Assembly (NCBI GenBank): GCA_016839945.1
Contig: JAEOTE010000095.1
Coordinates: 1 to 29,674, forward strand
Length of the DNA: 29,674 bases
Origin: Candidatus Heimdallarchaeota archaeon
Lineage (GTDB): Archaea; Asgardarchaeota; Heimdallarchaeia; Heimdallarchaeales; Heimdallarchaeaceae
Direction: 5' to 3'
Shown here: piece by piece, positions 18,781 through 29,674 of the stretch
How positions within the stretch are numbered: the first letter of the stretch is position 1
Layout of the letters: each line of letters opens with the position of its first letter
Position numbers and translations under genes: made by a program
The notes under the pieces: generated by a model
The model's database searches: none
What the model saw: only the letters and a program-made list of their open reading frames with translations
Told to the model about the DNA's origin: nothing

Positions 18781-20571
18781 ATGAGTATGTTAAACAAAAT
18801 AAAAGGAAAAAAAAGAGCTGTATCACCTGTTGTTGCTACAGTTCTTCTAATTAGTTTAGTAGTTGCAGCTAGTGCAATAGTTGTTGTAGTTGTAGTTCCC
18901 ATGCTTAGAGGGAGCTCAAGTATAAATTTCATCACAGTTCAATGGTTTGATACAGATGGAGATATAGTGGTTGATATAGCCTATGTAACACTACAGAATA
19001 CAGGTACTGCAGATTCTGTGATTAAATCATTAAATATTACAGTGGCAACTTCAGGTGGAGATGAAGTAGTAATTAATGAAACATCAGTTCAAGGAATAAA
19101 TTTGCCATTAGAAATAGATGCAGCTGAAAGATTAGATTTAGTTGTATCTTTTAATCCTGAAGATAATGTAGTGGTTGGATCTAATATATTTAGAGTTCAA
19201 ATGATTGGTGAAAATGACCAAGTAGTTCCCTTTCAAGATAATTTAAAATACATAAATGTAATAGAACCTTTAGATTTTCTTGTATTGAATCCACTTAACA
19301 GTAGTTGGATTAGTGGTATTATCGATGCTCAAGCAGTAGCATCAGGAGGATTCCAAGTGTCACCTATCACTTATGATTTCGTCTTACCTGATGAAACTGT
19401 TGTATTACAAAATCAGGCCATTACTTCTCACATTGATTCAACAGCTTATCCTGATGACATTGGTTATAAAATGATATTTTCTGTAAATGATTCTCTTGGA
19501 CAAAGCAAAGAAGTAACACAAACATTTGGAATAGATAATGTGGGTGTAGGAGTCGATTTATCGCTAAGTGACTCAATCATATACCCAGGAGATTCACTTA
19601 CTGCCTCATGGTCACTAGACTACGCAGGATCTCCCCTGATAAATCAAACTTTAGTACTAAGTGGAACTGTTTTTGGTTATGATCAAGTTTTCACTAGTAC
19701 TGAAGCTACAGTAACAGAATATATTTTACAAGGCACACAAACCTTGTATATGGCAGAAGATGAATTAACTTTCACATTGTATGTCAAAGATGCAGCTGGA
19801 AATACTAACATTTCAGGAGAATTATTCAACTTAATAGATAATATAGATCCTAATACTTACTTTATTTCACCAGCAAATGAGTCTGATTTAAGTGGGTATT
19901 TTGTTATAGAAGTTTTTGCTGATGATGCATCTGGTATAGATACTAATAGATTCGATGTTTACTTCTTTGCAAATAGCAGTGAGTACTATTATTTCTATCA
20001 ACAAAGTGTTGAACACTTAGCAACATATGTTGTGCATCAGAAGAAATGGGTTTTATATTTCAATAGTTATATACTGCCTGATGATAACTTCTCTATTGTA
20101 GCTCAGGTATATGATCTTTCAATCGCTGGAAATGGGAATACCACATCAATTGTTGCGAATGTAGATAATGACGTAATAAATGTATTTGGTGCAACTGCTA
20201 TTGATGGAAGAGGTGGTTTCTTCTTCAGAAGAAGAGGAGTATTATCATTCTACCTCAAAAATTTAGTTCCTTATACAATAACAATATCTGAAATAATGAT
20301 CAATTGGGGTGGAAACAGTAGAATTGATTGGGTTTATAGTATATATGATGATACACTTAATCAATACTGGTTAGAAGCAGGTAACTACGATGAAGATATT
20401 GCTTATCCTGTAGCTGCTGTTCAAGGAGGAATAAATATAACTGATGAGTTAGATCATCATCTAACAATTCAATTTAATTACGGAGATAAACCAACAGGCG
20501 TTGATTTTATTATTTCCTTCTACATAGATCAACTTGGTTCATGGGAAACAGTATACATAACGGAAGTATAA
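18781..20571 (+). CDS. Large archaeal type IV pilin/archaellin-signal surface protein with Ig-like beta-sandwich domains
   Basis: Class III signal peptide KKRA|VSPVVATVLLISLVVAA and pilin-like VTLQNTG. Ig-like ends include VNDSLGQ, VKDAAGNT and VYDLSIAGN, with many N-x-S/T sequons. An SD-like GAGGT precedes the ATG. Confidence 0.85.
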   Translation: MSMLNKIKGKKRAVSPVVATVLLISLVVAASAIVVVVVVPMLRGSSSINFITVQWFDTDGDIVVDIAYVTLQNTGTADSVIKSLNITVATSGGDEVVINETSVQGINLPLEIDAAERLDLVVSFNPEDNVVVGSNIFRVQMIGENDQVVPFQDNLKYINVIEPLDFLVLNPLNSSWISGIIDAQAVASGGFQVSPITYDFVLPDETVVLQNQAITSHIDSTAYPDDIGYKMIFSVNDSLGQSKEVTQTFGIDNVGVGVDLSLSDSIIYPGDSLTASWSLDYAGSPLINQTLVLSGTVFGYDQVFTSTEATVTEYILQGTQTLYMAEDELTFTLYVKDAAGNTNISGELFNLIDNIDPNTYFISPANESDLSGYFVIEVFADDASGIDTNRFDVYFFANSSEYYYFYQQSVEHLATYVVHQKKWVLYFNSYILPDDNFSIVAQVYDLSIAGNGNTTSIVANVDNDVINVFGATAIDGRGGFFFRRRGVLSFYLKNLVPYTITISEIMINWGGNSRIDWVYSIYDDTLNQYWLEAGNYDEDIAYPVAAVQGGINITDELDHHLTIQFNYGDKPTGVDFIISFYIDQLGSWETVYITEV

Positions 20572-20572
20572 T

Positions 20573-20600
20573 CCTTCTTTCTTTTTTCTTTCTTTATTTT
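20573..20600 (+). terminator. Oligo-T terminator candidate
   Basis: A pyrimidine/T tract (ccttctttcttttttctttctttatttt) immediately after the stop codon at 20571. Confidence 0.5.
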
Positions 20601-20655
20601 ATGTGTATCTTTATACATATTAAGCTTCATTAGTGTTTAAGCTATAATTATTTAC

Positions 20656-21264
20656 ATGAAAAAAAGAAATAGGATAATATCTATCTGTTTTTCTGTTATT
20701 CTATTGTTTTCTATAGTTTCCATTATTTTGTGGGAATATGTTTTTGATGTAGAAAAGTTTGATTATGGTTTTGAAACCAACTTTGGAGGTTGGGTAGGTG
20801 ATGCTGATTATTTAGTGGGTGAAGACGAAATTATTGCTGTTGATTGGAATGTAACTAAAGTAACAGAAAATCCATACAAGGGGAGTTATTCTATCTGTTT
20901 AGAGATTGATGGATTTCAAGATGATGGAGCTGTTTGGATTGAGAAGGCTTTCTTTGTAGAAAATGATAACAGTAGATATAAACATGTTAAAGTAAGTTTC
21001 CAATTCTTTTCTGACAATTTTGGTATGAATACAAGGGCTTTAATCTTCGCATCAATAAATACAACTAATCCATCAATAGAAGAGGATTTTGACCACAAGA
21101 TTACAACAATAACTAGTGATAGTTATCTAGATGGTTGGTATAAATTCAGTATAACAGCAAAGATAAAACCATTAGACCAAATTTGGGTAGCTATAGGTAT
21201 AAAAGTAGCATGGGAGACTTTACTTAAATATTACATTGACAATGTTTCTGTTCGAATCAGATAG
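20656..21264 (+). CDS. Membrane-anchored or secreted beta-sandwich (carbohydrate-binding-module-like) protein
   Basis: N-terminal signal/anchor helix, then YGFETNFGGW...PYKGSYSICL...W...YYIDNVSVR, the layout of jelly-roll CBM/MAM-like domains. Confidence 0.65.
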   Translation: MKKRNRIISICFSVILLFSIVSIILWEYVFDVEKFDYGFETNFGGWVGDADYLVGEDEIIAVDWNVTKVTENPYKGSYSICLEIDGFQDDGAVWIEKAFFVENDNSRYKHVKVSFQFFSDNFGMNTRALIFASINTTNPSIEEDFDHKITTITSDSYLDGWYKFSITAKIKPLDQIWVAIGIKVAWETLLKYYIDNVSVRIR

Positions 21265-21306
21265 AACATTCGAAAAGCTAATATTATTAATTTATTATTA
21301 CATGAT

Positions 21307-22203
21307 ATGAAAGTTACGTATAACAGATACCCAGAGCTTGAACAATTTCTAAATACTTTCGTTGAGTTTACTGTAACTTCATTAACTGTAAAATCTATTA
21401 TTCTTTTCGGAGGAATTACTCTAGATGATTTCTCAAAGAGATACAGTGAGATAGATATTGTTGTTGTTTTAGAAAAAGGATTGTGGAAAAAGGATTTTGA
21501 CACTCTTGATGAGATTATATCCAAAATAGGACAACTGAACAAGGAATTTGCACAGATTTTTACAGCCTATTTTGTTCCAGTAACGATGCTTGAAAATCCA
21601 AGGATTGTATATAATGACTTGGAAGGAATTATCGTTCGCAATTTGAATCAAATTATTATTGATCAGTATCCTCTTTCCCTTACTGATGATTTTGTAATTC
21701 AGAAGAAAGGAGAAGTATTATATGGAGAAAACATAATCAACAAGTTCCCTATCCCTCCTTTAGATTGTTTTTGGATCCAATTTGTGGAAGATTTATCAAT
21801 AATTGAAGCAATAGCAAAAGAGTACCCATTTCAACATGCTGATTCTCCTAACTATAATCAAGCTACTAATTGGATTCATTATTTCTCACGAATGCTTTAT
21901 TCTATCAAAAATAATGACATTTTAGGAAAACTAAAGGGTGCTTATTGGTTTTCTAATGAATACTATGGAGAACTAGGAGATTTCGTGACAGAAGTAGCCA
22001 GTTGTCGTCAGAAAAACATCTCCTTATCCAGTTTAATAGGTGTTGTAGAAAATAGTAGAAAATTACTTCTTTTCTTTTTAGAAAAAGCTTTTGAGCTGAA
22101 AGGAGTAAAGATTCCTAATCTGAGTATTTTGGTAAAATATGAAAACGATGTTGCCAATTTTAGTAGAGTATTTATGGAACTTAGGAATTTTGTAAGTGAT
22201 TAG
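21307..22203 (+). CDS. Pol-beta-fold nucleotidyltransferase with an AadA/DUF4111-like C-terminal helical domain
   Basis: SIILFGGITLDDFSKRYSEIDIVVVL is a variant of hGS..GDF....SDhDh. Also GEVLYGE and FSRMLYSIKNNDILGKLKGAYW, similar to the 'CRhhYT...g.hhSK..Aa.W' of ANT(3'')/DUF4111. Confidence 0.75.
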   Translation: MKVTYNRYPELEQFLNTFVEFTVTSLTVKSIILFGGITLDDFSKRYSEIDIVVVLEKGLWKKDFDTLDEIISKIGQLNKEFAQIFTAYFVPVTMLENPRIVYNDLEGIIVRNLNQIIIDQYPLSLTDDFVIQKKGEVLYGENIINKFPIPPLDCFWIQFVEDLSIIEAIAKEYPFQHADSPNYNQATNWIHYFSRMLYSIKNNDILGKLKGAYWFSNEYYGELGDFVTEVASCRQKNISLSSLIGVVENSRKLLLFFLEKAFELKGVKIPNLSILVKYENDVANFSRVFMELRNFVSD

Positions 22204-22209
22204 TTAAAT

Positions 22210-23586
22210 GTGGAAAAAATGAATGATAGGAGCAAAGTGCTTGAAACATTCATTAGTAAACTATTAACAGTTGTGCCAAGAACAATTTGTGTATATGAAT
22301 TTACAAAAGAAATAACTCAATTTGATAAGTGGCTGAAAAATAAGAAAGGTTTAGTTGTAGTTATTGACGATGATGATCATTCTTTAGAAAATCTTCTTCT
22401 TATAGATTTAATTTATGATACAATTCAAGATGAATTTGGCTGGAGAGAGGGAACAGCTTTTGCTTCAGCCTTTTCAAGAGGATATATTCGTACAAGAAAT
22501 AATTTATGGCATATCAATATTCAGAATTCACACTGCCTTTTACCTGAAGATATGATTAACCTAAAAAAAACAAGACAATTACTTCATGGTGAAGATATCA
22601 TATCAAGAATAGGTTTTCCTCATCAAGAAGAAGAAATACTGAGAATCAGCCCAGGACTTACAAGAAAAGAAGCTACAGAAATAGCTAAAAAACATCCTCA
22701 ATACAAACCCTTAGTTGAACCTGAATGTTGTTTAGCAAGGCATGATTTCGTAATAAAACACTCAATAGTAAATCTTCTAGAAGACAATTTAGTAATGTTT
22801 AAGAATTATATAAAACCTGAAAGAAATGCTCATTTATACGGAAGGTATTGGGGTTCAGGTAAAACACAAATCATATACTCCCTCATTAAAAAATGCAAAG
22901 AATTAGAGATTCCTTTCCTCTATAGAACAGAATTTTGGAAAGGAGAAGATGGTAAATATATAGATATAGAACATAATCCTGACAACGATTCCGACAAAGT
23001 TAGTGAATGGGCTGCCTTACATGCTCCTTCTCCACAATTTGTTCTATTTCTTGATGAAGTTGATATTGACATTAACCTTCTTAATGAGAATCTCAAAGTC
23101 AAGTATAAAGACTATGATCCTCTTTTTTATATCATATCCGGAGCTAAGGAAATAAGCTATTTTGTAGACGATGACTTCGATGTTTATGATATTGTAAAAG
23201 AATATCCATTTAATGAAACACAATACAGAGAGTTAGTTGAGAAATTAATGGATAAATCAAATTTAGATAAAACTGTCTTTGCAGAAGAAGTCATAGACAT
23301 TATTGTGAAGAAAACACGTTTATGGAATCACTCCTCAATCAGAAAAACTCCTACAGCTGTTATTTTAACAGCAACATTAGCTTTAATAGAATCAATAAAG
23401 AAATGTGATGATTTAGGTCAACAGCACGTTATTCTTCCTGAGATTGCAGAAAAGTGGGCACTTTTAGGAACTTCTCCTTGGTACCAATTACATGGTGAAT
23501 TGCATGATGTTCATGCTGAATACTTAATTTTTGATGGACAAAAATATACTGAAAAAGATGAGCATTACGATTATCCGCTGCCTTGA
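22210..23586 (+). CDS. Degenerate NTase-like N-terminal domain fused to a P-loop AAA+-type ATPase
   Basis: AHLYGRYWGSGKT (Walker A) and FVLFLDEVD (Walker B). The N-terminal half resembles the upstream NTase (QLLHGEDII vs EVLYGENII). It starts 6 nt after the upstream stop; the start is the GTG at 22210 or the ATG at 22219. Confidence 0.65.
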   Translation: MEKMNDRSKVLETFISKLLTVVPRTICVYEFTKEITQFDKWLKNKKGLVVVIDDDDHSLENLLLIDLIYDTIQDEFGWREGTAFASAFSRGYIRTRNNLWHINIQNSHCLLPEDMINLKKTRQLLHGEDIISRIGFPHQEEEILRISPGLTRKEATEIAKKHPQYKPLVEPECCLARHDFVIKHSIVNLLEDNLVMFKNYIKPERNAHLYGRYWGSGKTQIIYSLIKKCKELEIPFLYRTEFWKGEDGKYIDIEHNPDNDSDKVSEWAALHAPSPQFVLFLDEVDIDINLLNENLKVKYKDYDPLFYIISGAKEISYFVDDDFDVYDIVKEYPFNETQYRELVEKLMDKSNLDKTVFAEEVIDIIVKKTRLWNHSSIRKTPTAVILTATLALIESIKKCDDLGQQHVILPEIAEKWALLGTSPWYQLHGELHDVHAEYLIFDGQKYTEKDEHYDYPLP

Positions 23587-23602: not shown

Positions 23603-24658
23603 CTACATGAAATAATATTTTGAAATAACTGCATTTGTTTGAGAGAATTTTATAAACTCGCTTAATTCATCTCTCAGTTTATTCACATTTTTCTCATGGT
23701 ATGTTGAAAGATAAATCATTCCTACAGCAAATGAAATACCAGATATCAGAATAATTACAATCAAAATAAATGCAAATGCACCCAAATACATCAATATACT
23801 TGCTATTAGGGAAGGATCAAATTTACCTGTTATTAACTGAACAATATCAATGAAAAAACTAACTCCTGCTAAGATTACTGAAGCACTAAAGAGTCTACTT
23901 ATGATACTTGTTCTGAATCTATCAGAGAGATCATAAACATCGTTTTCTGTTCTTATATACCTTATACGAGAATCTCTTATGATCCAAAAAACAGGTGTAA
24001 CCCAAGATATGAGTACAGGAGACATTAAGATAACAATAGAACCTGCTAGAAAACCAGTATATGAGCTTCTTATACTAAACTTCACAATTGAAGCTAGAAG
24101 AAAACCTATACCTAAAGATGATGTTATCATATCCCTCAAACGTTTTCGTAGAAAATAACTGATTCGACTAATGTCAAGATCATGTGTTTCTTCTTCTAAA
24201 TAATAAGTAGTATCAGGGTCAATGTTAAGGTTAAATAAACTAGCAGAAAACACTCTAAAGAATTTATATTTTTTAAATTGCTGTTCCTTCTTTAATTTTT
24301 TAAACATCTCTTTTATTTCATGATCTTCTTGATTCTTTATTTTTAATGTTTGGTAAACAAGTTTCCTTGTAACAAGCTTTCCTACCCAATTCCATAAGAA
24401 AATTGATATTGTTGGAGATATGATTGACACAGATACGAGAATGATTGCCAGAATCGTATAATCTGAGGATCTTGGGGTGTAATCAGGAAATTTCAAAAAA
24501 CGAATAATTAAATACCAAACTGCATAAGAAACGAAGAATATCAAACCAACTGAAATCCAAGTTTTCTTCGATGGTTTTTTTACATGAAATATAGATCTTT
24601 TTGCACTTATCTCTCTTATTGGAAGAACTAACTGATTTTCTTCTGTCATAGCAATCAC
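23603..24658 (-). CDS. Hypothetical polytopic membrane protein (about 6 TM)
   Basis: 351-aa ORF with three pairs of hydrophobic helices and no recognised motif. Confidence 0.75.
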   Translation of the reverse strand: MIAMTEENQLVLPIREISAKRSIFHVKKPSKKTWISVGLIFFVSYAVWYLIIRFLKFPDYTPRSSDYTILAIILVSVSIISPTISIFLWNWVGKLVTRKLVYQTLKIKNQEDHEIKEMFKKLKKEQQFKKYKFFRVFSASLFNLNIDPDTTYYLEEETHDLDISRISYFLRKRLRDMITSSLGIGFLLASIVKFSIRSSYTGFLAGSIVILMSPVLISWVTPVFWIIRDSRIRYIRTENDVYDLSDRFRTSIISRLFSASVILAGVSFFIDIVQLITGKFDPSLIASILMYLGAFAFILIVIILISGISFAVGMIYLSTYHEKNVNKLRDELSEFIKFSQTNAVISKYYFM

Positions 24659-24780: not shown

Positions 24781-27261
24781 ATGGAATTAGAGAAGGAGAG
24801 AAAGTTACACAGTTATCTTTCTAACATATTTTATTATACATTTGTTTTAATAATTGCAATAATTTTTGTTTTGTCATTCCTAGTTACAGATGTGGAGATA
24901 ATTAACAATATACTCTATATTGTTCTAATTGTCTCTTCACTAGTTATTGTCTTCTATTTAGCGGTTCAGATGCTACAATATAATCGCAGAGTAAACAAGA
25001 AAGCCCAATTAGGAATCTTTCTTATTGTTATTGGTTTTCTTCTTATTTTAACCTCAACAAGTAAAGAAATTTCACTTGGGGGTTGGTTTTTACTTGATTT
25101 TCTGGGCGATTATTTCTTTGTATATTGGGGTATAGGTTCTATTGTTACTGGTATTATAGTTGAATTAACTTTCCTTGATCAACTTCTCTGGGATATGTTT
25201 GTTAAACCTTTCAAATTTTTATGGGAAAAACTAGTTGCACTGGCAAAATTAATCTGGAAACATTGGAAGAATATTTTGTTATATACACTAGATTTAGCAT
25301 CCATAGGTGGCATAATTTATGTTGCTGTTATATGGGAAATCTTATGGTGGAAAATTGTAATACTATCTGTTTGTTGTGTTTATCCTATCGCACATCATTC
25401 AAAACGAATTTGGAGAGCAATAAGATTCTTTGCTGTTGAGATCATCTATAAAATGTTTTACGAAATAGGTGTTCTCATAAAAAATGTTGCAGTATCGATT
25501 TGGAATGCTGTTGTTAGATTTTTCAAATTTATCGCAGAACACTGGTGGATTATTCTCAAAGAATTTTTACGTTTAGTAGTAGCTGTTGCTGGTATAGTTC
25601 TCCTCACACTTAAGAATCAGATAGATCCTGCATTTATTGTTCCCACATTTGTGTGGTGGCTCATCATGTTTGGAGCTATCTTGATTGGAGAGCTATTTTC
25701 AAGGAAGATTGTCCTCATAAAAACATGGAATGCAATTAAAAGCTTCTTTACATTCGTATGGAATGTAATTGTAGACACATTCAAATTTTTCTTAGAACAT
25801 TGGTGGATCATTCTCAAGGAATTCTTAAGATTTGCAACTGCCGTTACAGGTATATTCCTTTTCATCTACAATGAAGAGATAGATCCTTCATCTTCTGCTC
25901 CCGCATTTGCATGGTGGCTCATCATGTTTGGAGCTATCTTGATAGGAGAGCTGTTTTCAAGAAGAATAATTCTCATAAAAACATGGAATGCAATTGTAAG
26001 TTTCTCCGAATTCTTATGGAGAATCATTAAAACTCTAGCCAATAAAATGTGGGAAGCTATAAGAAGAATGTTTAGCTACCTTTTAAGAATACTCAAAAAT
26101 ATCTGGGAACTAATAAAAGAGCATGTTAAAAGAGTGCTTAACGAAACAGTTCGATTAATTCTCACTGCTGGTGCTATTTATTTAATTTTCTATGGAGTAT
26201 CCAATGATGCAGACTGGTATCCTTGGCTTGTAGGAATAAGTATTATTTTATTAGTTGAAATCATTCTCAGAAAAGTAGTTCTACTAAAAATTTACAATTT
26301 TATAAAGGAAGCTGCTTTATTCTTCTGGGAAATACTGAAGTTTCTATGGGAACCATTCAGATTCATATTAACAAAGATTTACGATTTACTCAAATTCATA
26401 AAAAAGCACTGGTTGAAAATACTACTCTATACTCTTGATTTAATATCCGTAGTTGCTATAATCTACTTCTCAGTTTCTTGGATTCTAGGCTTATTGTCTT
26501 TGATAATAATCGCAGCTGGTGGAATATATCTTGTGGGACATCATTATAAGACAATCTGGAAAGTAATAAGATTTGTAGCAGTAGATATTTTCTATAAATT
26601 CTTTTACAACGTTGTTAAATTCATTAAAAATATGTTTGAAGCAATCTGGGAGAAAATTGTTTCATTTATTAATTTCTGGAAAGAACATTGGAAGACAATT
26701 TTCAAGGAAGTTATAAGATTAGCAATTGCTGTTGCTGGTATTGTTATCTTTATCATTCAAGATAAAATAGATCCAACATCCTACTTACCTAATTTTGTTT
26801 GGTGGATTATTCTGATTGGAGCCATCCTGATTGGGGAAGTTTTTTCAAGAAAAATTGTTTTCATTAAAACATATGAAGCAATCAAATCAATTGTAACAAA
26901 ATTCTGGGAATGTTTGAAGAAAATACCGAAATTTATAGTAAATGTCTTTTATACTATTGGAATAACTCTACGAACTGTTTCAGTCTATGTTTATGATAAT
27001 TTCATTAGACTATTTTTGTTGTTATTCATGCTTTTCGCTATAGTATATGGTGTTGCTTTGTTATTCTCATTTATCAATCCAAGTGTTGACTTTATAGGAT
27101 TCTTTAGAAGTCTTGAAACATCAGCTAGACTTTCAATAGGTGCTGGTTTCATTATTTTATTCTCTGTTGCTCTCATCCTTTTAAGGAGAGAACTGAAGAA
27201 ACTACGAACAGGTACATCTAGAGTGTTGCTCAGCAAAATCAAGGAGAGGTGGCAGAAATGA
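24781..27261 (+). CDS. Large Trp/Phe-rich membrane protein built of tandem hydrophobic-hairpin plus amphipathic-helix repeats
   Basis: 826 aa. EHWWIILKEFLR...GI...IDP...F.WWLIMFGAILIGELFSR.I.LIKTWNAI occurs three times, and KHW..ILLYTLDL...HH.K.IW..IRF.AV.I.YK.FY occurs twice. A TATA-like TTTATATA lies at about 24751-24758. Confidence 0.85.
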   Translation: MELEKERKLHSYLSNIFYYTFVLIIAIIFVLSFLVTDVEIINNILYIVLIVSSLVIVFYLAVQMLQYNRRVNKKAQLGIFLIVIGFLLILTSTSKEISLGGWFLLDFLGDYFFVYWGIGSIVTGIIVELTFLDQLLWDMFVKPFKFLWEKLVALAKLIWKHWKNILLYTLDLASIGGIIYVAVIWEILWWKIVILSVCCVYPIAHHSKRIWRAIRFFAVEIIYKMFYEIGVLIKNVAVSIWNAVVRFFKFIAEHWWIILKEFLRLVVAVAGIVLLTLKNQIDPAFIVPTFVWWLIMFGAILIGELFSRKIVLIKTWNAIKSFFTFVWNVIVDTFKFFLEHWWIILKEFLRFATAVTGIFLFIYNEEIDPSSSAPAFAWWLIMFGAILIGELFSRRIILIKTWNAIVSFSEFLWRIIKTLANKMWEAIRRMFSYLLRILKNIWELIKEHVKRVLNETVRLILTAGAIYLIFYGVSNDADWYPWLVGISIILLVEIILRKVVLLKIYNFIKEAALFFWEILKFLWEPFRFILTKIYDLLKFIKKHWLKILLYTLDLISVVAIIYFSVSWILGLLSLIIIAAGGIYLVGHHYKTIWKVIRFVAVDIFYKFFYNVVKFIKNMFEAIWEKIVSFINFWKEHWKTIFKEVIRLAIAVAGIVIFIIQDKIDPTSYLPNFVWWIILIGAILIGEVFSRKIVFIKTYEAIKSIVTKFWECLKKIPKFIVNVFYTIGITLRTVSVYVYDNFIRLFLLLFMLFAIVYGVALLFSFINPSVDFIGFFRSLETSARLSIGAGFIILFSVALILLRRELKKLRTGTSRVLLSKIKERWQK
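25537..25995 (+). repeat. Intragenic direct repeat with a 258-nt (86-codon) period
   Basis: An identical 32-mer, tggtggctcatcatgtttggagctatcttgat, sits at 25654 and 25912, and an identical 24-mer, ctcataaaaacatggaatgcaatt, at 25714 and 25972. A third, more diverged copy starts at 26683. Confidence 0.9.
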
Positions 27262-28634
27262 AGGAAGAGAAAAAGAATAAGATTGATGCTGAAGAAGTCG
27301 AAAGAAATCCTGTTATCGCCACACTCTGGGTTGGATTAATAATTGGTGTTCTAGGAGTTCTAGGTATTATCATTTCACAAGTAGCTTTGGATGGAAATTA
27401 CTTCAGAATTTTCTTAGGAGTATTTCTGGGCGGAGTATTAATTTGCTTCTTTGCACTTATTCTTAGAAGATTAAGAAGAAAGGGAATAGAATATTTTGTA
27501 ATTGGCGCAGTTACTGCATATATTGGTTTTCTATTACTTGCTTTTCCAGCACTTTTTGCTACAATGGATATACAACTGTTTGCATTCCAATATGCTTACT
27601 ATATCTTAATGGTCGGAGGTGTTCTCTTAATAATTTTTGGCTTCTTTATGGAAACTTATGATTTAAACGAAAAGATAATTGAACTCTTCAAAAGAATTGG
27701 AGTTGCATTAAAGAACTTACTGAAAAAACTTAATTGGAAAATGATATTATCACCTTGGAACTTTCTATCAGTTGCAGGAATAATTGTTATCATTCTAACA
27801 TCAGAGGAAATTATTCCACTCCTTCCTGTAGTCTTCTATATCATAGGAAGTATATTGATTCTGGCTAACTTCGTGTACCATTTCAAAGAAGAAGTAGTTG
27901 AGGTTTTAAAGAATATTGGAAACATTTTCTATACATTCTTCAAAGCTTGGGCAAAAGCGCTAAAACAAATTCCAAGAATAATAAAGAAACTAGCACAGTG
28001 GTTGTATGATCCTGAAAGATTCAAAAGGATGATTAGGTGGGTATATAAGCAAATTAAACTTGTTGGAAAAGCAATAAAGTACATTGTAGTAAGAAATTAT
28101 ATTTTCCTATTTGCTTTTGGTATAGTAATGTTCTTCATCTTGAAAGATTTAAGTCTGGAAGTAAGAATATCAATCTCCTCCTTAGTTTGCTTCATTGCTT
28201 TAGTAAAACCAATCTTAGACTGGAGAGAACACTTTGGCGAAGAAATAAGCTCAGCAAGAATGTTTTTGTACAAAACAACACAAAAAACAAGGAATGTTTT
28301 CAAAAGGAGAGATATAATACGTTGTCCACATTGTAATTATTCAAACATTGCATCAAGAAGAGAATGTTGGAATTGTAAAGAAACAATACCAAATTGCTGG
28401 ATTTGTAATGGAGTTTTTGAACCTGAAACAGAAGTTGCTGTATGTCCAAATTGTGATAATAATTATCACATAAAACACTTGAAAGCATGGTTAAGATTTA
28501 ATCCAAAATGCCCAGTATGCCATGAACCTATAGAAAAGATTGAAACTGAGATCTACTTACCAGATTATTTTACATTAGCAGAACAAACTACAACTGAGAA
28601 TAACTCGCAAATAAGTGAAGATGTAGATTCTTGA
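27249..28634 (+). CDS. Multi-pass membrane protein with a C-terminal zinc ribbon and RING finger (putative membrane E3 ligase)
   Basis: About 8 hydrophobic segments. A CPHC..CWNC ribbon is followed by CWIC-x12-CPNC-x3-YHIKHLKAWLRFNPKCPVC, a RING with the conserved W and CPxC. The start is either the GTG at 27249 or the ATG at 27258, which forms an ATGA overlap with the upstream stop. Confidence 0.88.
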   Translation: MAEMKEEKKNKIDAEEVERNPVIATLWVGLIIGVLGVLGIIISQVALDGNYFRIFLGVFLGGVLICFFALILRRLRRKGIEYFVIGAVTAYIGFLLLAFPALFATMDIQLFAFQYAYYILMVGGVLLIIFGFFMETYDLNEKIIELFKRIGVALKNLLKKLNWKMILSPWNFLSVAGIIVIILTSEEIIPLLPVVFYIIGSILILANFVYHFKEEVVEVLKNIGNIFYTFFKAWAKALKQIPRIIKKLAQWLYDPERFKRMIRWVYKQIKLVGKAIKYIVVRNYIFLFAFGIVMFFILKDLSLEVRISISSLVCFIALVKPILDWREHFGEEISSARMFLYKTTQKTRNVFKRRDIIRCPHCNYSNIASRRECWNCKETIPNCWICNGVFEPETEVAVCPNCDNNYHIKHLKAWLRFNPKCPVCHEPIEKIETEIYLPDYFTLAEQTTTENNSQISEDVDS

Positions 28635-28734: not shown

Positions 28735-29674
28735 ATGGTTGAAGTAATAGAATGGCCCTTAGGACGAGGGGATGAAATCCTATACAGACATCCTCGAGAT
28801 ACCATAAATTGGGGAGACCAAGTGAATTGTCTACCCAATCAGTGTGCAGTTTTCATCAAAGATTCAGTTGTTTATGATGTCTTAAAATCAGGAAGGCATT
28901 TCATGAAAACAAAAAACATTCCACTTCTGACAACTTTTCTATCAAGAATCGTAGGGTTTGATAAATCACCCTTCAATTGTCAAGTGATTTTCATCAATTT
29001 AGCAGACTTTCAAGGAAAGTTTGGAGGACGAAGTCAAACACAAGAACTAGCTCCATTACAATTCTTTGGAGATTATTTCTACAAAATTGATGATATACAG
29101 AAATTCGCTTTTGAAATAGCTGGTAACAGAAATATCTATACTACTGCGGCTTTCAACGATTTCTTTAGAAATTTCGTTGTTCAAGAAGTTATTAGTAAAC
29201 TTTCAGAAAAAGGCATTGTAGATGTAATGTCTAATCTAGGCAAAACTTCTGATTTTATAGAAGGTGAAGTAAAAGCTGATCTACTAGAGATGGGAATCAA
29301 ACTGAAGAACCTGAAATTTGGTGGCATTGACACAACTCCTGAATATCGTGACAGACTCTTCTGGATGAGATCAGGTGTATCAGCAAGTCAAGTACAACAA
29401 TATGCTGGAATGGCTGATGTAGCAGAAGCTCTACCTGAAGGAGGATCTGGTCTAACTGGAGCTGTAATGGTAAACAACCTGTTTTCTAAGAGCGAAATTA
29501 AACAAGCTGATAAAATTGAGAAAAAAGGTGACGTAGAAGCAGCTTTCATAACATGCAATCAATGTAATAACAAAGTTTCTCCAGCATCTGCTTTTTGTGG
29601 AAGCTGTGGAGATCCTATGGACGACGAGAAGAAAGGTGAATTTAAGTTCTGCACTGAATGTGGTGCTAAGAACA
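28735..29674 (+). CDS. SPFH/Band-7 domain protein (YdjI-like) with C-terminal double zinc ribbon; 3'-truncated
   Basis: Not in the ORF track because it has no stop codon in the window. The translation MVEVIEW...ILYRHP...WGDQVNCLPNQCAVFIKD...GRHFMKTKNIPLL...SPFNCQVIFIN...KFGG...FFGDYFYKIDD matches YdjI/Band_7_1, and it ends CNQC...FCGSCG...KFCTECGAK. An SD-like GAGG lies upstream. Confidence 0.9.
   Translation, partial: MVEVIEWPLGRGDEILYRHPRDTINWGDQVNCLPNQCAVFIKDSVVYDVLKSGRHFMKTKNIPLLTTFLSRIVGFDKSPFNCQVIFINLADFQGKFGGRSQTQELAPLQFFGDYFYKIDDIQKFAFEIAGNRNIYTTAAFNDFFRNFVVQEVISKLSEKGIVDVMSNLGKTSDFIEGEVKADLLEMGIKLKNLKFGGIDTTPEYRDRLFWMRSGVSASQVQQYAGMADVAEALPEGGSGLTGAVMVNNLFSKSEIKQADKIEKKGDVEAAFITCNQCNNKVSPASAFCGSCGDPMDDEKKGEFKFCTECGAKN

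Follow-up and report, generated by a model that had tools for sequence, protein, structure and literature searches.

In the published model of the reticulon-homology domain of FAM134B, short transmembrane (TM) hairpins with 5-6 turns per helix are closed by 3-4-residue, polar, Gly/Pro-rich loops, held by charged-residue anchors and flanked by interfacial amphipathic helices; as a wedge, these elements make the bilayer thinner and bend it away from the cytoplasmic leaflet (PMC6542808). FAM134B is ubiquitinated within the reticulon-homology domain, which promotes clustering of the receptor, and the paper on this modification treats the multi-pass RING-H2 ligase AMFR extensively (PMC10247366). 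We analysed a 29,674-nt stretch of Candidatus Heimdallarchaeota archaeon DNA (contig JAEOTE010000095.1, assembly GCA_016839945.1; hereafter the window), in which a polytopic repeat membrane protein of 826 aa (P0001; 24,781-27,261, forward strand), which an initial annotation of the sequence had likened in architecture to reticulon/REEP proteins, is encoded directly upstream of a multi-pass RING-H2-like protein. Heimdall-group archaea are the closest known relatives of eukaryotes, and the origin of endomembranes and of ubiquitin control is an open question; the window would bring a RING-H2 membrane protein and a reticulon-like design together in one membrane as a two-gene module, in an organism with ubiquitin and ubiquitin-conjugating enzymes (E2). 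Our preferred reading, to which we give a probability of roughly 0.4, is that P0001 is a cytoplasmic-leaflet scaffold, partner and possibly substrate of a membrane ubiquitin ligase (E3).

The P0001 gene and the RING gene form one genetic module. The RING gene (27,258-28,634, forward strand), on which the initial annotation of P0001 is silent, encodes a 458-aa multi-pass membrane protein with a C-terminal Zn ribbon and a RING-H2-like domain; its ATG (27,258-27,260) overlaps the TGA of the P0001 gene (27,259-27,261) in a 4-nt ATGA, and a Shine-Dalgarno-like run, GGAGAGGTGG, lies just upstream of the ATG. An overlap of this length recurs in all fetched loci whose flanks are long enough. In a co-occurrence survey of 31 genomes of the taxonomic family, the genomes bearing the P0001 gene (from four genera) have a full-length orthologue of the RING gene directly downstream on the same strand, except G045, where the RING match is partial and on a different contig from the P0001 gene. 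The genomes without the P0001 gene have only unrelated RING-domain matches (G026, G068, G074, G080, G139, and G154) or, in G003, unrelated matches and one 204-aa partial match to the C-terminal part of the RING protein. For example, G154, which belongs to the same genus and is 92% complete, retains the HypA/HypB, pilin-like, NTase-like and P-loop genes and is missing the pair. At a further locus (L018), a divergent 543-aa member of the P0001 family lies between genes for an aminotransferase and an AMP-binding enzyme, with an orthologue of the RING protein (40% identity, E 6e-117) immediately 3′ of it. The overlap, the joint gain and loss, and the adjacency at L018 thus indicate that the two genes are one module whatever the synteny. 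A complex prediction for residues 497-826 of P0001 and residues 1-345 of the RING protein gave scores of 0.30, 0.47, and 0.26 against a mark of 0.32; these scores, obtained without controls, count neither for nor against binding.

P0001 is a genuine gene under purifying selection. Its open reading frame, in a window with a G+C content of 31%, opens with an ATG and comprises 826 codons, and the start is conserved among the orthologues, whose consensus N-terminus is MExEKEK. Comparison with a close orthologue (L014, 86% amino acid identity) gave 0.058 nonsynonymous (dN) and 0.367 synonymous (dS) substitutions per site, a dN/dS ratio of 0.16, which argues for a real gene and against a chance open reading frame. 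The gene is present in a single copy in the source assembly (3.0 Mb, 186 contigs, 88% complete). The translation is very hydrophobic, with 47% Ile, Leu, Phe and Val, 4.7% Trp, and 7.3% Lys.

The RING protein has about eight hydrophobic segments with amphipathic stretches of its own, followed by a CxxC…CxxC Zn ribbon and the RING domain (28,395-28,520, forward strand; C-x2-C-x12-C-x2-C-x4-H-x2-H-x10-C-x2-C). This ligand pattern is atypical (C4-H-H-C2); all twelve Cys and His residues, including all eight ligands of the RING cross-brace, are invariant in eight orthologues, and so are Ile382, Trp411, and Pro419, which we take to be the usual E2-contact positions of RING-E2 structures; on these grounds the protein looks like a working E3. 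The family profile matched the structures of RING-H2 E3s, best Arkadia (E 4.7e-7) and also RNF165, RLIM, and RNF38, as well as the RING domains of synoviolin (0.004) and AMFR (0.0095), with no match to anything outside the RING domain; the Pfam model zf-RING_2 reached E 3.5e-5, below its gathering score, and no PADLOC defence model matched the protein. Its family is as narrow as that of P0001: 37 proteins, all from metagenome-assembled genomes (MAGs) of the Heimdall group. An hhalign comparison of its membrane part with the C-terminal third of P0001 (probability 64%, E 6.6e-5, 13% identity) gives a weak hint that the two may be paralogous; BLASTP gave no significant match. Above the Pfam cut-offs, the source genome has four matches to UQ_con (E2) and two to ubiquitin; its open reading frames with a RING domain related to that of the partner number at least nine. 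Two of its contigs (C69 and C129) each carry an E2 match and a ubiquitin match, and matches lie on other contigs, including C4 and C144; one of the RING families in this genome, with proteins of ~696 aa, is found in nearly every genome of the taxonomic family.

P0001 consists of an N-terminal domain and tandem units, and the order A-B-B-C-A-B that the initial annotation gave for the units after the N-terminal TM segments was borne out by two approaches. In P0001, diagonal BLOSUM scoring picked up strong repeats 86 aa (B1/B2) and 382 aa (A1-B1/A2-B3) apart, and weaker ones at 189/193 aa. A hidden Markov model (HMM) of unit B2, built from the orthologue alignment and searched against P0001, found A1 at residues 135-186 (E 2.5e-7), B1 at 228-310 (E 4e-20), C at 421-498 (E 3e-17), A2 at 518-580 (E 3.5e-4), and B3 at 613-692 (E 2e-18); a seventh stretch from residue 693 can be aligned by eye, and is not significant with this HMM. 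In the orthologues, five to seven units are detectable. Judged from these matches, all units of P0001 descend from one unit of ~86-100 residues, and the DNA identities between copies (75% for B1/B2, 61% for A1-B1/A2-B3) mark the repeats as old, nested duplications.

All parts of the protein are encoded on the forward strand. The N-terminal domain (aa 1-136; 24,781-25,188), delimited by hydropathy and invariant columns, has four TM helices and is the best-conserved part of P0001 (mean identity 0.62; motif YWGIG…ELT..DQ..W); the loop between its TM2 and TM3, QYNRRVNKK, is basic, and the N-terminus is predicted to be inside. Unit A1 (aa 137-210; 25,189-25,410), recognised by the unit HMM and invariant columns, has a helix with Trp at 137, 148, and 159, a spacing of 11, and a hairpin with an invariant Asp171 within a TM helix and an invariant His205-His206 at its exit. 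Unit B1 (aa 211-310; 25,411-25,710) has a long amphipathic helix, an LKEFLR entry, a short hairpin, and an SRK exit. Unit B2 (aa 311-396; 25,711-25,968), the unit that we modelled, is a tandem copy of B1 (66% amino acid and 75% nucleotide identity at an offset of 86 aa, or 258 nt). Unit C (aa 397-499; 25,969-26,277) has the longest and most amphipathic helix (hydrophobic moment, muH, up to 0.8), with Trp at 402, 413, 424, and 442 (spacings 11-11-18), and then a hairpin. Unit A2 (aa 500-592; 26,278-26,556) is a copy of A1 with invariant Asp553 and His587-His588, and unit B3 (aa 593-692; 26,557-26,856) is a copy of B1; A1-B1 and A2-B3 share 48% amino acid identity at the offset of 382 aa. A degenerate seventh unit and a conserved C-terminal module, recognised by unit alignment, make up the rest (aa 693-826; 26,857-27,258), with a KKIPKFI helix, two TM helices, and a basic tail. 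Both copies of the A-type unit have an invariant Tyr-x-x-Asp within the first hairpin arm (168-171 and 550-553), and their His-His pairs (205-206 and 587-588) stand at the cytoplasmic exit of the second arm; these residues, which map to about 25,282-25,398 and 26,428-26,544 of the window, could form a metal or ligand site.

Hydropathy and moment profiles confirmed the unit design proposed in the initial annotation, namely two short hydrophobic segments joined by a short loop and a Trp/Phe/Lys amphipathic helix (the example helix it quoted lies at residues 313-342): amphipathic segments of 30-64 residues, with muH of 0.4-0.8, alternate with pairs of TM segments. Each unit opens with the helix, which ends in (E/K)HW and the motif LKExLR; there follow the first arm, a short, polar loop (often IDP), the second arm, and xRK. 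Across 94 unit instances from 27 proteins, three residues alone are invariant: E37 and R40, in LKExLR, and R84, in xRK. The span between the two invariant Arg residues around the hairpin has a median of 38 residues (range 32-47), with arms of 15 and 18 residues (medians) and a Pro/Asp-containing loop of six (median; mean net charge -0.7).

The charges and the amphipathicity of these segments suggest where the helices lie. The seven amphipathic segments contain 64 Lys and Arg against 27 Asp and Glu, and the loops 4 against 11; by the positive-inside rule, this asymmetry suggests that the long helices face the cytoplasm. A topology with both termini inside and 18 membrane helices is predicted, which fits the two basic stretches, the TM2-TM3 loop and the C-terminal tail. 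Hydrophobicity recurs every 3.64-3.75 residues in each of the seven segments, as for a straight stripe and not for a heptad coiled coil. On helical wheels, 64 of the 99 Ile, Leu, Val, and Met residues fall within 60 degrees of the hydrophobic moment, 15 of the 24 Trp at 60-120 degrees, and 19 of the 21 Asp and Glu beyond 120 degrees (the centre of the polar face), with Lys and Arg at the apolar boundary or beyond it; this is the class-A layout of lipid-surface helices. The amphipathicity is also conserved: in five of the seven segments the muH of the orthologues is 0.48-0.55, compared with 0.24 ± 0.08 for shuffled sequences, although the amphipathic segments share only 34-51% identity among orthologues, so that it is the physical property on which selection acts. 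About 36% of P0001 is surface-type amphipathic helix, and 41 of its 60 Lys residues sit in the cytoplasmic helices.

AlphaFold2 models of the full-length protein (predicted local distance difference test, pLDDT, 60; predicted template modelling score, pTM, 0.28) and of the unit (pLDDT 69.6, pTM 0.32) can be relied on for secondary structure but no further. The unit model has TM2, then a two-residue break at Ser-Arg, the next amphipathic helix, and finally the next TM1. Since the helix bridges TM2 and the next TM1, both of its ends would be pinned to the same membrane face, and on this model each amphipathic helix must either lie in the membrane plane or fold back as a cytoplasmic helical hairpin.

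P0001 belongs to no known family. There was no Pfam match for the whole protein at E <= 0.01 or for pieces of it at E <= 5, and no match to NCBIfam or to PADLOC defence models, so the absence of a soluble or catalytic domain noted in the initial annotation held up in these searches. With the family profile, a search of PDB sequences returned nothing (best E 0.94). Fold comparison was uninformative: Foldseek against PDB gave a best E of 1.0 (TRPV2), an ESM Atlas fold search gave template modelling scores of at most 0.18 by query length, and VIA-align wide, run with the unit model, gave Z <= 8.1 to generic long-helix proteins, which is below the noise level that the tool states for helical models. 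An ESM Atlas feature search gave no usable match. When 1.84 billion representative proteins were searched exhaustively with a profile, 24 proteins came back, all of them members of the family itself or fragments. In none of these searches was a known family matched by sequence, profile, or fold.

The 28 homologues of P0001 (800-940 aa, 35-87% identity) all come from Heimdall-group MAGs, labelled Heimdallarchaeota, Heimdallarchaeaceae, or Asgard group; the two closest partial records carry the label Thorarchaeota. In a sample of 301 Asgard genomes, the gene was found in 21 of the 28 from its own taxonomic family (four of the five genera) and in none of the 272 from 29 other families; the closed genomes that lack it include two from a sister genus in its own taxonomic family. 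Where present in the four genera, it is single-copy at a conserved chromosomal locus. A unit-level search among longer proteins and a profile search with the RING-TM protein revealed no new lineages. A distant relative (P0046; L017, positions 4-1938 of a 2.6-kb contig from JGI metagenome 3300041080; E 3e-8 to the family profile) has about five units of ~89 aa, some of them near-identical, each with an amphipathic helix, WKEILR, and a hairpin, and may represent a second lineage of the unit. Downstream of it, the gene for a soluble Zn-ribbon protein is cut off after 233 aa at the contig end.

Other genes of the window lie on both sides of the pair. Upstream, and divergent from the P0001 gene across a 122-nt spacer, a gene at 23,603-24,658 (reverse strand) encodes a 351-aa multi-pass membrane protein in which no similarity to P0001 was found; it is present in genomes without the P0001 gene and relocated in G154, and is probably not a member of the module. 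One member of a conserved trio at 18,781-23,586 (forward strand), of 596 aa, has at its N-terminus a signal resembling those of archaellins and type IV pilins (TIGR02537, 5.9e-4); the other members are an NTP_transf_2-like protein of 298 aa and a P-loop protein of 458 aa (weak KAP_NTPase match, GSGKT Walker A). As the trio is kept in G154 without the pair, we regard it as a separate module. Between the pilin-like and the NTase-like genes, a 202-aa signal-anchored protein is encoded at 20,656-21,264 (forward strand), with no counterpart at that position in L001, L002, or L016. The pair is closely followed by a gene (28,735-29,673, forward strand, continuing past the end of the window) for an SPFH/Band-7 protein whose C-terminus carries a double Zn ribbon. 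An SPFH gene is also near the pair in L001 and L002; the GT2 and FTR1 genes that intervene in L001 and the absence of the SPFH gene from L018 indicate that its linkage to the pair is loose.

Putting these observations together, we propose that P0001 is a lineage-specific polytopic scaffold, with a 4-TM N-terminal domain and then six (to seven) tandem units. In each unit, the Trp/Lys-edged helix would lie on the cytoplasmic face of the membrane, a side read from the charges, and the short TM hairpin would be clamped by the invariant Glu/Arg/Arg triad. Some 300 residues of interfacial helix and seven short hairpins would then load the cytoplasmic leaflet asymmetrically and thin the bilayer. The scaffold would be the obligate partner, and possibly a substrate or regulatory target, of the translationally coupled RING-H2 protein; the placing of most Lys residues on the cytoplasmic helices suggests that P0001 may be the substrate of the partner ligase, for which FAM134B, with its ubiquitinated reticulon-homology domain, offers a eukaryotic precedent (PMC10247366). 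We infer that the helices lie in the membrane plane, and likewise the physical binding of P0001 to the RING protein, the E3 activity of the latter, and any effect on membrane shape. Binding within the pair and an active ligase would make this an experimentally tractable archaeal membrane E3 complex, possibly a membrane-remodelling one.

Several observations weigh against this proposal. Conservation in P0001 is strongest in the 4-TM domain at the N-terminus and in the A-type hairpins with the invariant membrane Asp and His-His, a pattern more suggestive of a site for binding or transport than of a passive scaffold. The low confidence of both tertiary models leaves room for a compact helical bundle or for a cytoplasmic one formed by the amphipathic helices, and AlphaFold draws the amphipathic helix as continuous with TM1, with no kink at the junction. 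Nor is the protein a general feature of Asgard archaea: its family is very narrow, and even within the taxonomic family two closed genomes lack it.

Among the alternatives, the one that survives best, although we consider it unlikely, is that P0001 is a substrate-recognition or membrane-thinning subunit of a ligase resembling those of endoplasmic-reticulum-associated degradation (ERAD), analogous to Der1/Hrd3 with Hrd1; through its hairpins, whose charged residues lie within the membrane or close to it, P0001 would recognise misfolded membrane proteins or make them less stable, so that the partner can ubiquitinate them. Like Hrd1 (in Hrd1-Der1-Hrd3) and AMFR/gp78, the RING protein has several TM segments and then a cytoplasmic RING-H2-like domain, and its RING profile matches synoviolin and AMFR; the invariant Glu/Arg pair at each hairpin entry, the hydrophobic mismatch that the short hairpins imply, and the SPFH gene nearby in several genomes are also consistent with such a role. 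The resemblance is limited, however: the best RING matches are soluble E3s (Arkadia and RNF165), and the partner differs from the Hrd1/AMFR ligases in its C4-H-H-C2 pattern, in the preceding Zn ribbon, and in having no homology outside the RING, its TM region included. P0001 itself is a repeat protein without counterpart in the ERAD complexes, and neither Der1 rhomboid-like nor Hrd3 Sel1-repeat homology was found for it in Pfam or in the PDB sequence search. In addition, the SPFH gene is absent from L018, and no Cdc48 or proteasome genes are linked to the pair within the window.

The conservation pattern would also suit a transporter, a channel or a membrane enzyme, with the N-terminal domain and the A-type hairpins as a metal or substrate core, the amphipathic helices as gating or packing elements, and the RING protein as a regulator. 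Conservation peaks in the N-terminal domain (0.62) and the A1 hairpin (0.63), the residues D171/D553, H205-H206/H587-H588, and Y168/Y550 are invariant, and the number of TM helices is even (18), with both termini predicted inside. We nevertheless think this improbable. No family of transporters or enzymes was matched in Pfam, NCBIfam, PDB sequences, or fold libraries; the middle units show little conservation and number five to seven, unusual features in a transport core; and more than a third of the protein is surface-type amphipathic helix.

Equally doubtful is that P0001 acts as a pure reticulon/REEP-like shaper which tubulates membranes alone, with the RING neighbour incidental or a turnover factor only. 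The short hairpins, the flanking interfacial helices, and an order of elements as in the FAM134B model would fit, but P0001 has no homology to the reticulon/REEP families and no known oligomerisation motif, and, to judge from the strict co-inheritance and the translational coupling, its function involves the RING protein. The expected direction of curvature is a further difficulty, one which also counts against the connection to Asgard protrusions that the initial annotation had drawn: because a cytoplasmic-leaflet wedge bends the membrane away from that leaflet, the geometry would be ill-suited to outward protrusions (our inference from PMC6542808). At the plasma membrane, such a wedge would be expected to promote inward tubules, vesicles, or protrusion necks instead of outward shafts.

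The scaffold reading extends to the FAM134B-AMFR circuit only speculatively. In that eukaryotic case, membrane remodelling is regulated by AMFR-linked ubiquitination inside a domain of hairpins and amphipathic helices (PMC10247366). We regard it as a long shot that the pair is a non-homologous archaeal counterpart of that circuit, in which ubiquitin on the Lys-rich helices would control the clustering of a curvature scaffold; if this were true, it would mean ubiquitin-regulated membrane remodelling in a Heimdall-group archaeon.

A likeness of another kind is to the tape measure proteins (TMPs) of phages, for which an 11/18-residue Trp/Phe pattern has been described (PMC5099701). P0001 has such periodic repeats: besides the Trp ladders of units A1 and C, Trp 316 and 327 are 11 residues apart, and Trp-Trp spacings of 11, 14, and 22 are enriched in the family, although the z-scores overstate the significance, as the orthologues are not independent. 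In PHROGs, P0001 weakly matched the tape measure family phrog_58 (E 6.3e-5) and phrog_1272 (0.005); all 11 tblastn matches in a phage collection were TMPs of Paenibacillus and Bacillus phages (23-24% identity, E 4e-3 to 1e-2), and a pairwise comparison with the TMP of phage Lilo gave E 1e-8, with shared 'hWNxI' helices and Trp 11 apart. The exhaustive profile search, however, returned no TMP at E <= 0.001, and no Pfam TMP family matched P0001. TMPs of siphophages share the 'hWNxI' amphipathic motif, with Trp every 11 (or 18) residues, but they are encoded among tail-module genes, and their aligned region has short linkers where P0001 has TM hairpins. That P0001 is a domesticated or remnant viral TMP is very improbable, since the likeness is confined to an 11-residue amphipathic motif, possibly convergent, the neighbours are cellular (HypA/HypB, M24 peptidase, SPFH) with no PHROG structural matches and no tail, capsid, or chaperone genes nearby, and the gene is single-copy at a conserved chromosomal locus in four genera, with the RING gene always next to it. 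We read the resemblance as one of helix motif, due to convergence or to very ancient relatedness, and place P0001 outside the TMP family.

The helices can also be compared with those of lipid-binding proteins. The class A amphipathic helices of exchangeable apolipoproteins and other 11-mer lipid-surface helices, such as those of alpha-synuclein, belong to soluble or peripheral proteins; they share with P0001 a period of ~3.67, a basic boundary, and an acidic centre of the polar face. The P0001 helices differ in being tethered at both ends by TM hairpins and in the prominence of Trp at the boundary.

The closest comparison remains that with RTN, REEP/Yop1, and FAM134B, which share with P0001 short hairpins, a polar Pro-containing turn, charged anchors, and cytoplasmic amphipathic helices. 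The flanking amphipathic helix that reticulon-type proteins need for tubulation has its counterpart in P0001 (muH 0.4-0.8, a class-A-like wheel, conserved), and its arms of about 15 and 18 residues compare with the 5-6 turns of FAM134B. The nearly equal physical parameters of the P0001 unit and the FAM134B model, together with the short hairpins, the interfacial helices and their pinning to the same face, indicate that the analogy drawn in the initial annotation holds; that annotation claimed no homology, and none was found with Reticulon (PF02453) or TB2_DP1_HVA22 (PF03134), by sequence or profile, in Pfam, with pieces of P0001, or in the exhaustive profile search. The differences are several: P0001 has 6-7 hairpins in one chain instead of two, short ones that may either span the membrane fully or act as wedges; an extra conserved 4-TM domain; Trp ladders on helices that are much longer (30-64 aa); and, as its obligate partner, the product of a RING-H2 gene. 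It is also archaeal, and limited to one family. The distribution in one family and the lack of any eukaryotic homologue outside the RING favour a lineage-specific invention, and the module is more likely a parallel invention than an ancestor of the ER-shaping or ERAD machinery. P0001 is best described as a distinctive variant among hairpin-plus-amphipathic-helix scaffolds: it repeats the unit six times, has Trp ladders like those of tape measure proteins, and comes with an obligate RING-H2 partner.

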